A DNA stretch of 64,000 nt from an uncultured Pseudomonadota bacterium (GCA_964388745.1 CAYMBP010000001.1:28244-92243); one strand, 5' to 3'. Shown: positions 13,476 through 17,763, counted from the stretch's first letter. A program made the numbers and translations. The notes: generated from the sequence alone by a model not told the origin.

Positions 13476-15458
13476 ATGTATTGTACTGTGCGGTTTCTTG
13501 ATGGGTATGATAGGCTTCTGACTTATCGAATACCAGATCGTCTTAAAAATAGTATTTGTCCTGGTGTCGTGGTTAGTGTTCCACTTAGGACGAAGCAGCG
13601 CTATGCCCTTGTTATTTCTATTTCTTATGCATTAAAGATACGTTCAGGCGTAGTAGTCCGTGATATTCTTGAGAGAGCAACAGTTCCGGCAGATGATTCA
13701 TTTTATCGATTTTCTCAAGTATTAAGTGAAAAGTATTACTGCTCATCAACTTATGCTTATGAGCGAGTTTATCATATGCTCAAGCAAAAAGATAAAAATC
13801 AAGAAGTTCCTCTTAGAACATATGACAATAGATCATTTGTTGATGTTATTTTAACCAATGAGCAGCAACGAGTTGTTGACTATATTGCACCACGAATTAT
13901 GAATCCTTGTTTTGATCCTGTTTTGATGCATGGGGTGACTGGGTCTGGGAAAACAGAAGTATATAAACATTTAATTCGCAAAGCAATAAGTGAGAAGAAG
14001 ACTATTCTTTTCTTATTACCGGAAGTTTCTCTTGCGGTACAATTTCAAGCAGTTTTTGAGCAGCAGCTGCCGGATGTGCCTTTGTACTCATTTCACTCAG
14101 CTACACCAGTTGGTAAAAAGCGGGAATTGTGGAAGCTATTGTGTGCAGGAGAAAAACCTGTACTTATTATAGGAGTGCATCTTCCTGTTTTTTTACCAAT
14201 TAAGCAATTGGGCTTGATTATTATTGATGAAGAGCATGAGCGTGGATTTCTTGAAAAAAGGTTACCTCGTTTAAATAGTAAAGAGCTTGCTTTGTGGCGC
14301 GCAAAAGTGAATAGTATTCCCATTCTGCTTGGCTCAGCAACTCCTTCATTAAGTTCTTTGTACAATGTTGAGCGGCATGATTGGAAAATGTTTTCAATTA
14401 CCAAGCGTTTTGCTGGAGCATTTCCAGAAGTGCGTAAGGTGTTGTTGACAGAGCAACCTAAAAAACGTAAATATTTTTGGATTAGTCGTGAGCTTGAAGA
14501 GGCAATTCGTCAAACACTTGCGCGGCAAGAGCAAGTAATTATTTATATTAATCGTCGTGGACATAGCTTTTTTGTGCAATGTAAAGGTTGTGGTTTTATT
14601 GCGCAGTGCCCTCATTGCTCCGTAAGTTTAACTTATCATATTAAAAGTGGACAAGAGTTACTTCTATGCCATTATTGTGATTATGAGCATCTTTTTTTTA
14701 AATGTTGTCCTGAGTGTAAGAGTAGTAAGGAATTTTTGAAAAAAGGAATTGGTACACAACAAGGGGTTGCTCTTCTAGAATCATTATTTCCAACGGCTCG
14801 AGTTGCTCGAGCAGATTTAGATTCGACAACTCAGAAAAAGACCTGGAGAAAAACGGTTGAGGCATTTGAGCAGAGAGAGATTGATATTTTAGTTGGAACA
14901 CAAACAATTACCAAAGGATATCATTTTCCCCATGTAACGTTGGTGGGCATTTTGTGGGCAGATTTAAATTTAAATTTTCCAGTATATGATGCAACAGAAA
15001 CCACTTTACAGCAGCTTATTCAGGTAGCAGGGCGAGCTGGGCGTCAAAGTTCAAAAAGCTTAGTTATTGTACAAGCTCTTCAGGATCATCAAGCATTTGA
15101 TTTTATGAGTGAGACCACATATCGGGATTTCTGTCGGCAAGAGCTTGATGTGCGGATTCTTGTTGGGTATCCGCCTGTTGTACGTCTGGCCTGTATAGAA
15201 ATGCGTTCTTCTGATGTTGACCGTGTGGAGCGAGAGATTCAGATGTTATATCAAGAACTTGTGGTAACTGCACAGAATAGTGGTCTTCAGATTGATATCA
15301 AGCGGCCTTCCATGCCGGCGATTCATCGGATAAATAAATGGGAGATTCGTCATATTATGATTAAGGCAAAACGCTTTGATACATTGCAAAAATTGTGTGA
15401 CTCAGTAAAAAAAGAGTATTATAAAAGTGATCTTGCTATTATGACGCACCAACTTTAA
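13476..15458 (+). CDS. priA: primosomal protein N' (replication restart helicase PriA)
   Basis: Walker A 'GVTGSGKTEVY' and DEXH-like 'IIDEEHE'. Cys-rich zinc region 'CKGCGFIAQCPHCSVSLTYH...LLCHYCDY...CCPECKS'. 'VGTQTITKGYHFPHVTLVGI'. Confidence 0.9.
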   Translation: MYCTVRFLDGYDRLLTYRIPDRLKNSICPGVVVSVPLRTKQRYALVISISYALKIRSGVVVRDILERATVPADDSFYRFSQVLSEKYYCSSTYAYERVYHMLKQKDKNQEVPLRTYDNRSFVDVILTNEQQRVVDYIAPRIMNPCFDPVLMHGVTGSGKTEVYKHLIRKAISEKKTILFLLPEVSLAVQFQAVFEQQLPDVPLYSFHSATPVGKKRELWKLLCAGEKPVLIIGVHLPVFLPIKQLGLIIIDEEHERGFLEKRLPRLNSKELALWRAKVNSIPILLGSATPSLSSLYNVERHDWKMFSITKRFAGAFPEVRKVLLTEQPKKRKYFWISRELEEAIRQTLARQEQVIIYINRRGHSFFVQCKGCGFIAQCPHCSVSLTYHIKSGQELLLCHYCDYEHLFFKCCPECKSSKEFLKKGIGTQQGVALLESLFPTARVARADLDSTTQKKTWRKTVEAFEQREIDILVGTQTITKGYHFPHVTLVGILWADLNLNFPVYDATETTLQQLIQVAGRAGRQSSKSLVIVQALQDHQAFDFMSETTYRDFCRQELDVRILVGYPPVVRLACIEMRSSDVDRVEREIQMLYQELVVTAQNSGLQIDIKRPSMPAIHRINKWEIRHIMIKAKRFDTLQKLCDSVKKEYYKSDLAIMTHQL

Positions 15459-15481
15459 GGTTAGTGCGTCATAATAATTTT
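15441..15481. terminator. bidirectional hairpin between convergent priA and the RING-like gene
   Basis: Perfect 9-bp stem: atgacgcac (15441-15449) pairs with gtgcgtcat (15465-15473). Flanked by A/T runs. Arm 1 lies inside the last priA codons. Confidence 0.55.
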
Positions 15482-16731
15482 TATAAGGGCATGTGGCTTC
15501 CGCGAACGGTGAGTAAATCATTTATATAAATAACATTTGTTGTATGATAATTAAGTAATATTGCTTCTTCTATTTTTTTATCAAACTCGCTTAGAGTGGG
15601 TGAAAGAGGGCCTCTGTTGAGATAAACAAGAAATGATTCTCTTGCAAGAAATCGGTTCGGCAGATAAGAAATAAGCTCGGATTGTGTATTTGGTGGTGAA
15701 CTAAGAGGAATAATAGTCTTATTTGGAATAACAAGCAGGCACTCTGCATTTAATTCAGAATGTCCTGGGTATAACTTTGCTCTCGCAATAGGCCAGCCAT
15801 TTCTGATAAGATTAAGTTGAATATCAAAGTTGCCGGATGCATCTTTTCTACATTCTATTTGGGCTTTTGGAGTTTCTGATAGATTGGTATCATATGAGCC
15901 TATATAGTTTACTGCGTAATCAAGGGAGAGTGAAGAACTGTAGGCTCTATTGTTTGAGTTTGATCTACTTGATGAGTTTGCTGTTGTTGAAGTGCTTGTG
16001 GTAGTTGTCGTTGTTGTTGAGGAGGTAGGTGGTGTTGATGATATGTTTGTTGGAGCTAGTGTTATTTCTGAAGCGTTATCTTTATCGTCAAGTGAAATTA
16101 TCATTGCACTTGCAGGAATAGAAGATTTTTTAGCCTTCTTTTTTGTTTGTTCAGTAGATTGTTTTGCAGACCGTTTTTGCTTTTTTTGTGTGAAAGTGCT
16201 TCCTGGGCATTGTGGACATCGATAACTTTCTTGCTCGTCTTGATCATTATTGTCATCAAGAGAAAAAGTATCAATTGCTTTGAGCCTTGAAATACAAGCT
16301 GTGTGAATTTTATGTGAGCAGCTATCAAAAGATATGATGTCAATAAAGCCATGACATACGTCGCACAACTTAATATTTTCGCTCTTTTCAGAAGCCTCCT
16401 GGCTGAGAATATCTGTTACAATGGTGAGTTTATTTTGAATCACTGTATATTGTTTTTCAACATCTTTTTCTTGTTGCTGCGCAGCATTTTTTTCTTGTTG
16501 ATCATAAGTTAATATTGCCTGAAGTGTAGGTATCGCTTCAATTTCTTTTTTAATTTCTTCAAGTTGATTTGTAAGAGCAACTATTTTTTGAAGAAGAATG
16601 TTTTTCTTTTCATTAAGGTTTTTTCTCTCATTTCGATTTGAATAGTATGAGATTTGGTCTGAAGACATTGCTTCAAGGCAACTCATAGAGCCAATCAATA
16701 ATAGGATGAATGATAGATGACGTGTAAGCAT
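15481..16731 (-). CDS. secreted coiled-coil protein with a RING-H2-type zinc-finger signature
   Basis: RBS GGAGGttttattATG. Signal-like 'MLTRHLSFILLLIGSMSCLEAM'. Residues 123-175 (nt 16207-16365) read C-x2-C-x11-C-x-H-x2-H-x2-C-x25-C-x2-C. Thr/Ser tract 'STPPTSSTTTTTTTSTSTT'. The C-terminal ~150 aa are unrecognised. Confidence 0.6.
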   Translation of the reverse strand: MLTRHLSFILLLIGSMSCLEAMSSDQISYYSNRNERKNLNEKKNILLQKIVALTNQLEEIKKEIEAIPTLQAILTYDQQEKNAAQQQEKDVEKQYTVIQNKLTIVTDILSQEASEKSENIKLCDVCHGFIDIISFDSCSHKIHTACISRLKAIDTFSLDDNNDQDEQESYRCPQCPGSTFTQKKQKRSAKQSTEQTKKKAKKSSIPASAMIISLDDKDNASEITLAPTNISSTPPTSSTTTTTTTSTSTTANSSSRSNSNNRAYSSSLSLDYAVNYIGSYDTNLSETPKAQIECRKDASGNFDIQLNLIRNGWPIARAKLYPGHSELNAECLLVIPNKTIIPLSSPPNTQSELISYLPNRFLARESFLVYLNRGPLSPTLSEFDKKIEEAILLNYHTTNVIYINDLLTVRGSHMPL

Positions 16732-17686: not shown

Positions 17687-17734
17687 GATTATAAACTCCA
17701 TTTAAATAATCAAAACATGGTTATAATTACTATT

Positions 17735-17763
17735 AATATTTCATGGAGGAAGAATTTTGTCAA
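17735..17763 (-). promoter_or_regulatory. sigma70-like promoter for the 17686-15481 two-gene unit
   Basis: Minus strand reads TTGACA (17763-17758), a 17-nt spacer, then AATATT (17740-17735). Lies about 45 nt upstream of ATG 17686. Confidence 0.4.

Follow-up and report, generated by a model that had tools for sequence, protein, structure and literature searches.

Here we report a pair of adjacent genes, A and B, lying between the housekeeping genes ddl and priA in a 64,000-nucleotide stretch of DNA, called the window throughout, from an uncultured bacterium filed under Pseudomonadota (GCA_964388745.1 CAYMBP010000001.1:28244-92243). We put at about even the chance that the pair is a lineage-specific, probably co-transcribed accessory insert in the ddl–priA slot, made up of an exported, host-directed RING-H2 protein (B) and a divergent protein of the permuted Ulp1/C48 type (A). 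On present evidence A and B are likely to be effectors that manipulate the host, of a general type already known. A first-pass annotation of this DNA had proposed a "writer plus eraser" unit in which a ubiquitin ligase is paired with a deubiquitinase (DUB); of that proposal the RING ligase is probable, the SUMO-interacting motifs (SIMs) are plausible and the accessory cassette stands, while the classical DUB gives way to a suggestive Ulp1-like trace. The coupling of a writer with an eraser is something we infer from gene adjacency, and SUMO may be as relevant to the pair as ubiquitin.

Gene models and orphan status

Gene A (16775..17686, minus strand) encodes a predicted exported orphan protein of 303 aa if translated from the ATG at 17686, or 308 aa if translation starts at 17701. 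The former start is the likely one, with GGAG 10 nt before it and a product matching NCBI protein P0002; residue numbers for A refer to the 308-aa frame. Gene B (15481..16731, minus strand) has a strong ribosome-binding site and encodes a predicted exported RING-H2 orphan of 416 aa. In its annotated frame A has coding log-odds of +0.14, the remaining five frames giving -0.5 to -1.0; for B the value is +0.21, positive in the annotated frame only. Among 5.8 billion clusters each protein matched only itself, A again had no match but itself when 1.84 billion representatives were scanned exhaustively with HMMER, and comparison of both with the PDB (phmmer), NCBIfam and PADLOC gave nothing meaningful.

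A probable RING-type ligase mimic

Residues 123-175 of B (16207..16365, minus strand) carry the sequence pattern C-x2-C-x11-C-x-H-x2-H-x2-C-x25-C-x2-C, in which the zinc-ligand positions C123, C126, C138, H140, H143, C146, C172 and C175 make up an exact C3H2C3 set. This lies within the general RING pattern used here, C-x2-C-x(9-39)-C-x(1-3)-H-x(2-3)-H/C-x2-C-x(4-48)-C-x2-C, which as a regular expression was found only in B across the window and nine related loci; shuffling B 20000 times never produced it, nor did 100 rounds of shuffling a control set of 798 open reading frames (ORFs; 115 k residues). The spacing of ligands three to six, C-x-H-x2-H-x2-C, is that of RING-H2 and not of PHD fingers. 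At least seven RING or PHD families of Pfam align end to end with the finger at E<0.1, among them PF24921 (4.4e-6), zf-RING_5 (0.004), zf-RING_UBOX (0.007) and zf-C3HC4 (0.008). By inspection against the RING consensus, V125 (CDV125C), the helix HTACISRL up to L150, and CP174QC occupy the usual E2-contact positions. The RING call of the first-pass annotation is thus borne out by the ligand spacing, the hydrophobic E2-contact positions, the CPxC and the several end-to-end, if sub-threshold, Pfam alignments, and B is probably a mimic of RING E3 ligases, for which E3 activity would be expected.

In the remainder of B, residues 23-118 form a polar, helix-prone stretch. Downstream of the finger, a basic patch at residues 183-202 (16126..16185, minus strand; KKQKRSAKQSTEQTKKKAKK; 40% K/R over residues 181-205) resembles a bipartite nuclear localization signal and is followed by a weak SIM-like motif, MIISLDDKDN, at residues 210-219 (16075..16104, minus strand), and by a low-complexity Ser/Thr-rich linker at residues 231-261 (15949..16041, minus strand; 50% S/T over residues 206-269). 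The C-terminal hydrophobic-rich domain of about 147 aa (15484..15924, minus strand) has no Pfam match, and the AlphaFold2 (AF2) model covering it has predicted local distance difference test (pLDDT) values of 43-57 and is unusable; this domain may serve as a substrate-binding module.

A Ulp1-like trace in gene A

In Babela massiliensis, nine signal-peptide-bearing paralogues carry a circularly permuted Ulp1-like peptidase fused to an AAA ATPase domain, which have been interpreted as targeting host sumoylation (Pagnier et al. 2015, PMC4378268). As displayed there (Additional file 13), a Cys block lies near the N-terminus and a His-Asp block, "HW.TCV…P[RK]FIFADSL", at the very C-terminus. Gene A encodes candidates for both blocks in this order. 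The first, QNIGTVCGH (17339..17365, minus strand), is of the form Q-x5-C-G-H, with Q113 as candidate oxyanion Gln, C119 as candidate nucleophile, and H121. Its Q-x5-C-G spacing equals that of SENP1 QMNGSDCG, hhalign gives matches at motif level only, and the pattern Q.{5}CG is common, with 6 observed against 4.4 expected in the 798 ORFs. The second is the HW…DSM block (16847..16915, minus strand; HWISVVVLKDALNNPFFIISDSM), which has H263, the adjoining Trp and D283-S-M, lies 25 residues before the C-terminus, and provides a candidate catalytic His and Asp of the C48/Ulp1 type.

It is this second block that carries the case. Of the 798 ORFs, A alone contains the regular expression HW.{12,20}DS[LMIVH] (0.165 expected), and when the Babela fragments and a further relative, but not A, are combined in a His-Asp mini-profile, A ranks first of the 798 with E=0.0014, the next match being at 0.61. 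That relative came from metagenome DNA: a search with the pattern W-I-T-C…FIFADSL returned nothing, as did a contig scan for Babela paralogues with a pseudo-alignment of the fragment read by optical character recognition (OCR; OCR-uncertain 8-mers), and a second metagenome pattern, which drew on nothing but the Babela block, led to locus L012, the hits L010 and L011 being spurious. The L012 protein (5183-6823; 546 aa, with a signal peptide) has C303 in SCGYH, H488 in HWISLVVNK and D507 in FIFADSLG, followed by a 27-residue tail. It served as a positive control, matching the canonical C48 family through His, Asp and Q..C once its Cys segment is moved to the C-terminus (10.2 bits, 0 of 1000 shuffles as good, against 3.1 bits in native order). 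The last 60 residues of A align to those of L012 with a Smith-Waterman (SW) z of 5.8 (1 of 500 shuffles as good); across the whole domain z falls to 2.9. Re-permuted A scores 8.6-8.8 bits against a profile of C48 plus L012, with 1-2 of 2000 shuffles as good (p≈0.001), the His-Asp block alone driving the score. No AAA domain was matched in A or in L012. The L012 member indicates that the permuted family is wider than described from Babela, and its lack of an AAA ATPase that the ATPase fusion may not define this wider family.

Locus L012, a metagenome contig, holds three tandem paralogous secreted proteins (2517-6823; 273, 331 and 546 aa) with the peptidase domain only in the longest, and a common N-terminus made up of a signal peptide and a module of the form "QAM[RK]KKR..AAEK.I..A..LY….EL.KRV".

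Classical DUB families were tried for A and set aside. Pfam gave no match to Josephin (C86), UCH (C12), OTU or USP. Small Josephin and UCH profiles, of which the Josephin one was made from sequences confirmed against the PDB, did no better on A than on shuffles, and hhalign returned motifs of 5-10 residues at probabilities of ≤1.3%. Canonical C48 was likewise rejected. A custom four-sequence C48 profile, validated on the PDB (SENP1/2/8 and Ulp1 at 250-370 bits), also detects, with E values of 1e-10 to 7e-4, XopD, NopD, ChlaDub1/2, RickCE and OtDUB; A reached 3.8 bits, with 24 of 1000 shuffles as good and an hhalign probability of 1.9%. Only 25 residues follow D283, and the canonical His-Asp-Gln-Cys order, with the Cys about 45-60 residues after the Asp, is absent. 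Matches by eye come easily for Josephin, UCH and C48 alike; the string "AFNIMDTL" of A fits motifs of both Josephin and C48. As A is no better than shuffles on these profiles, no classical DUB assignment survives, and the deubiquitinase named in the first-pass annotation found no match in Pfam, the PDB, NCBIfam or the Josephin, UCH and canonical C48 profiles. We give roughly equal weight to the C-terminal domain of A being, or not being, a divergent permuted Ulp1-like fold; the evidence, significant for the His-Asp block only, is suggestive of a protease for SUMO or another ubiquitin-like protein (Ubl) and not of a classical DUB.

SIM-like motifs and a possible SUMO-directed module

Two SIM-like motifs lie in the N-terminal part of A. 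The first, at residues 44-56 (17534..17572, minus strand; IITIDSDSEEDND), consists of a hydrophobic core that runs into a Ser/acidic tail, and the second, ITIDLSEDED at residues 75-84 (17450..17479, minus strand), repeats it after a basic spacer, KRPCLKKEEK. Both combine a ψψxψ/ψxψψ core with an acidic/Ser flank in a non-globular region, here an acidic segment of low hydrophobicity (28% D/E). The SIM call of the first-pass annotation therefore holds at motif level, and the resemblance is to phospho-SIMs; it is suggestive only, since loose SIM-like patterns are frequent in ordinary proteins.

A more specific form of the favoured explanation can be built from these motifs. Here B would be a secreted RING-H2 mimic of a ubiquitin ligase of the SUMO-targeted type (STUbL) and A a SIM-guided, circularly permuted Ulp1-like deSUMOylase resembling SENP6/7 or Ulp2, the two together depleting or redirecting nuclear SUMO conjugates of a protist host. 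The repeated motif in A with its weaker counterpart in B, the basic bipartite patch of B, and the Ulp1-type His-Asp block all fit this proposal, as do the precedents of Babela peptidases interpreted as aimed at host sumoylation (PMC4378268) and of viral RING STUbLs as an established strategy (PMC12702859). We nevertheless hold this form to be improbable: it is built wholly from short linear motifs, the string in B fails a stricter SIM filter, there is no evidence for nuclear targeting, and CE-clan effectors often favour ubiquitin or NEDD8 over SUMO, ChlaDub and RickCE being annotated as deubiquitinases or deneddylases.

Points against the favoured reading

Several results weigh against the broader reading of an exported RING-H2 protein paired with a Ulp1-like protein. 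Both products are orphans, and the AF2 single-sequence models are unusable (pLDDT 37.8 for B residues 110-416 and 33.4 for A residues 40-308), so neither fold is confirmed. All RING matches of B lie below the Pfam gathering thresholds (27.1 against 50 bits for PF24921, 16.4 against 21 for zf-C3HC4, 17.5 against 27.9 for zf-RING_5). The roughly 215-residue remainder of A, whole or in fragments, matched no peptidase family in Pfam (no C48 match at E≤10), nor did A when permuted or doubled. Its signal against C48-type profiles comes only from the His-Asp block of about 23 residues, the rest of the domain and the Cys block being non-significant, and nothing in A clearly corresponds to the Trp of the C48 WLND clamp. 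The comparison with Babela draws on noisy OCR fragments only. Ordinary genes contain loose SIM-like patterns at a rate of about 6 per 18.4 k residues, which makes a single copy no rarity. Lastly, a Sec signal takes a protein only as far as the periplasm, short of the host cytosol.

Much of this concerns A, and it feeds the main alternative, which we regard as somewhat unlikely: only B is related to the ubiquitin system, A is an unrelated, fast-evolving secreted ORFan whose motifs are due to chance or non-catalytic, and the two genes adjoin because the slot collects lineage-specific secreted genes. The lack of a peptidase profile match and of homologues, the non-significant whole-domain comparisons and the SIM-like strings of ordinary genes are what one would expect if A were such a protein. 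They have to be set against the fact that the sole HW…DS[LM] block in the 798 ORFs is that of A, that A is the top match of an independent permuted-Ulp1 His-Asp profile, that the block stands equally near the C-terminus in A and L012 (25 and 27 residues), and that the Q-x5-C-G-H block lies upstream of it, as the permuted family would have it. The arrangement of the two genes, described next, also speaks against the alternative.

Evidence for a single transcription unit

The two genes are read from the same strand, with the stop of A at 16775 and the ATG of B at 16731, and are separated by the 43-nt spacer that the first-pass annotation had reported (16732..16774, minus strand). The spacer contains AGGAGG (16739-16744) 7 nt before the ATG of B and no terminator-like site; this short distance and strong Shine-Dalgarno sequence argue for co-expression of A and B. 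Upstream lies the sigma-70-like promoter candidate noted earlier, TTGACA-N17-AATATT with TG before the -10 element (17735..17763, minus strand), the best such site in the region with 10 of 12 matches, in a class that is not enriched (12 sites found against 10.6 expected in shuffles). Still further upstream, directly after the ddl stop, a terminator-like hairpin (17803..17841, minus strand; inverted repeat I2) is followed by CUCUUUUAU; at -20.8 kcal/mol, with z = -2.2 and 6 of 200 shuffles as stable, this predicted element has moderate support, and it would separate transcription of ddl from that of the A-B unit.

At the other end, the downstream hairpin of the first-pass annotation is present in a different form, with an 18-bp stem at 15436..15477 in place of a 9-bp one at 15441-15473. 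This stem-loop (inverted repeat I1; -25 kcal/mol, z = -7.7, 0 of 200 shuffles as stable) is a candidate bidirectional terminator that overlaps the last codons of the convergent priA; a T-run follows on the priA side and not directly on the A/B side. With a common strand, a short spacer free of terminator-like sites, and promoter-like and terminator-like sites of its own, the pair has the usual features of an operon, and the earlier proposal of one transcription unit is plausible.

A variable slot between ddl and priA

The source lineage is Dependentiae (TM6). The best matches of the neighbouring 739-aa Ddl-Ddl protein share 61% identity with it, and matches at ~54-55% carry the names Candidatus Dependentiae, TM6 or Babeliales. 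That protein (17847-20066) is itself a tandem fusion, with two complete D-Ala-D-Ala ligase units in one chain, an arrangement found in thousands of related proteins, the named ones being mostly Dependentiae, TM6 or Babeliales. Dependentiae are obligate intracellular bacteria of protists. A chlamydial origin, prompted by a Pfam match of a Lys-rich protein to the histone-like family HC2, was set aside, as the relatives of the Ddl-Ddl protein speak against it; the protein concerned (9533-10066; 177 aa, rich in Lys, Ala and Thr; E 1.5e-16) probably matches through its composition, or else condenses the nucleoid as a product of convergence.

Relatives of the locus, none of which was found by scanning genome contigs with priA, keep the gene order psd–rpe–ddl–[slot]–priA(convergent)–DUF374–M16 peptidase–…–ndk, and what varies is the content of the slot. 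L001/L002 and L003/L004 each have two unannotated genes there, L005 has one, and in L008, with 5 nt between ddl and priA, the slot is empty; in L006, L007 and L009 synteny around ddl–priA is broken. Most of the slot proteins of relatives have signal-peptide-like N-termini (the ORFans of L001, L003 and L005), and none is significantly similar to A or B, the sole signal, between the helical region of B and L003_256 (z=5.3), being probably compositional. These observations support the view, already put forward in the first-pass annotation, that A-B is accessory content of a slot that varies and is flanked by housekeeping genes: priA does adjoin ddl directly in one relative, and unrelated ORFans fill the slot of others. 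The slot proteins of L001 (12287-14028) and L003 (8348-9954) have in common a motif of ~30 aa, roughly LLxxLNxxLxxA…IDxxxFxN (blastp E≈0.01), sometimes in more than one copy per protein, which may represent an uncharacterised repeat family of secreted proteins and is not convincingly seen in A or B.

Composition tells A and B apart. GC content does not deviate, at 0.357 for A and 0.353 for B against 0.371±0.024. The codon usage of B is typical of window genes, while A is 2-3 standard deviations atypical in synonymous codon usage and in GC at third codon positions (0.34 against 0.272±0.035), with a codon score 3 standard deviations below window genes. The two genes may therefore differ in age or origin despite a common transcription unit. 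Such different histories, like the unrelated ORFans in the same slot of relatives, sit well with the alternative in which A has nothing to do with ubiquitin. An origin from a mobile element was rejected, there being no flanking direct or inverted repeats and no GC deviation.

The neighbours of A-B are ddl, rpe, psd, priA, DUF374 and the M16 peptidase, with no E1, E2 or Ubl gene near the pair. PADLOC found no meaningful match at the locus, which lacks the E1, E2, Ubl and JAB neighbourhood of the Bil, Bub and CBASS Cap2/3 systems.

Export signals and proposed action

Both products begin with predicted export signals. Residues 6-40 of A (17582..17686, minus strand) comprise a basic n-region, the h-region FIVSFCAAGLILSSS and an end LEC/M, where the slash marks the predicted end of the signal (maximal hydropathy 2.61), and would act as a Sec signal peptide or signal anchor. 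Residues 1-22 of B (16666..16731, minus strand), MLTRHLSFILLLIGSMSCLEA followed by M, have the n-, h- and c-region layout of a signal peptide (hydropathy 2.45). The strings "IGSMSCLEAM" and "ILSSSLECM", which the first-pass annotation had remarked on, do end the hydrophobic N-terminal segments. Their likeness is no argument for the common ancestry suggested there, as about half of the window ORFs have signal-peptide-like N-termini; common ancestry was rejected, the mature parts of A and B being dissimilar (SW z = 0.3).

A Met directly after the predicted signal-peptide end recurs in many secreted ORFs here and in relatives (LEA/M, LEC/M, VSG/M, LAP/M, AKA/M and, three times, QA/M[RK]KKR). In the window such sites occur at 16666-16668 (M22 of B), at 17582-17584 (M40 of A) and in the ORF at 3074-4009, and elsewhere in L001 (13066-14028), L005 (12444-13139) and L012 (2517-3338, 3813-4808, 5183-6823). 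They could mean that signal peptides were grafted before original starts, or that internal starts give non-exported isoforms.

Under the favoured reading, both proteins would be exported by Sec and would then reach the host through a type II secretion system (T2SS) or vesicles. Once inside the host, in the cytosol or nucleus, B would use its RING to recruit the host's E2~ubiquitin and would ubiquitinate targets held by its C-terminal domain or SIM-like motif, while A would bind SUMO conjugates through its SIM-like motifs and possibly cleave SUMO or ubiquitin-like conjugates. Signal peptides are usual on effector candidates of this phylum and present on a large share of its coding sequences (PMC6561590, PMC4378268). 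Chromulinavorax offers a parallel for the export signals, which it has on 44% of coding sequences, with enrichment in ORFans, and on most ankyrin proteins (PMC6561590).

The same N-terminal signals could belong to envelope or periplasmic proteins with bacterial functions, in which case the Cys/His cluster of B would be a structural zinc site unrelated to ubiquitin. We consider this very improbable. It agrees with the export or anchor signals on both proteins, the sub-threshold RING scores and the lack of evidence of translocation, but a C3H2C3 spacing of eight ligands, residues of the E2-contact type and the CPxC are specific to RING-H2 and not to zinc ribbons. No E1, E2 or Ubl gene lies nearby and PADLOC has no match, the phylum is one that exports proteins with eukaryote-like domains through Sec signals, and the absence of A and B from relatives indicates that they are not core envelope functions.

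Other features of the window

Two further signal-peptide-bearing ORFs without a Pfam match, at 21855-22655 (266 aa) and 23830-24795 (321 aa), are possibly effector or envelope candidates; the mature part of the former begins Cys-rich (…CCNNTTAECACGS). The region 25349-28935 encodes DabA (PF10070, E 2e-223) and a proton-antiporter-like DabB, an inorganic-carbon transporter module that is unexpected for a putatively host-dependent intracellular bacterium.

Significance

Dependentiae are widespread in protists, almost none are cultured, and their action on the host is little understood. If the favoured reading is right, the phylum would gain a true zinc RING-H2 ligase, the permuted Ulp1-like family would extend past Babela to a member without an ATPase and with SIMs, and host SUMO–ubiquitin crosstalk may be the target of a co-expressed ligase/protease pair. 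The ddl–priA junction, for its part, can be viewed as a conserved housekeeping site that acts as a landing pad for secreted ORFans of fast turnover.

Comparison with known systems

Adjacent effectors of opposing activity are known from Legionella, where MavC/MvcA, a ligase and its reversal enzyme delivered by a type IV secretion system, are experimentally proven. The likeness to A-B lies in a host-directed "writer" and "eraser" standing side by side; folds and chemistry are unrelated, and for A-B the coupling comes only from adjacency.

Among eukaryotic RING-H2 ligases, the STUbLs RNF4 and Slx5-Slx8 above all, and with them the viral ICP0/ORF61, resemble the pair in a C3H2C3 RING, SIM-like hydrophobic/acidic motifs and a basic patch of the nuclear-targeting type, and Slx5-Slx8 divides its SIM and RING functions between two polypeptides. 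An N-terminal export signal, a long helical stretch and a C-terminal domain of unrelated type set B apart from these. No homology of B to eukaryotic or viral RING-H2 ligases is detectable beyond the finger, A has no RING, and A and B are known here from sequence alone. We know of no well-validated bacterial mimic of a STUbL; a review calls Legionella LubX STUbL-like (PMC12702859).

That amoeba-associated bacteria deploy effectors of the ubiquitin system is, as a general idea, well established. Pathogen effectors of RING/U-box type include NleG and LubX. Eukaryote-like domains of the ubiquitin system have been described in amoeba-associated Babela (PMC4378268) and in the RING/U-box family NEX1b of Neochlamydia (PMC4209131). 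The Babela RING protein, NEX1b and these pathogen effectors are, like B, bacterial proteins with a eukaryote-type E2-recruiting finger that are presumed to be exported to the host. What distinguishes B from RING/U-box effectors (Babela, NEX1b, NleG and LubX) is a zinc-ligating RING-H2 in place of a U-box, the lack of a leucine-rich-repeat or ankyrin partner, its orphan sequence, and its pairing with a second putative gene of the ubiquitin/SUMO pathway.

For A, the CE-clan effectors XopD, NopD, ChlaDUB1/2, RickCE and OtDUB offer the HW…D-S signature and a presumed action on host ubiquitin or Ubl conjugates; in them the canonical His-Asp-Gln-Cys order is retained, and A, in whichever order, reaches no significance like theirs. 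Closer are the permuted Ulp1-like peptidases of Babela (PMC4378268) and L012, with which A has in common the phylum-level setting, an N-terminal signal peptide, a Cys block upstream of the His-Asp block, and HW[IV][ST].VV.K…FI..DS[LM] about 25 residues from the C-terminus. The similarity is significant for the His-Asp block only, and A differs from the Babela peptidases in lacking an AAA ATPase domain, in having CGH and not CGYH, and in its two SIM-like motifs; its Cys-to-His distance is 144 residues, against 185 in L012. To call the pair a system not described in bacteria, as the first-pass annotation had done, was thus an overstatement, since a RING finger protein, three secreted C19 hydrolases and the permuted Ulp1-like peptidases are already on record for Babela massiliensis, where a T2SS is the only secretion system (PMC4378268). 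What is new is an orphan RING-H2 protein, a probable variant of the permuted Ulp1-like family that has SIMs and no ATPase, and the presence of both in one small unit.

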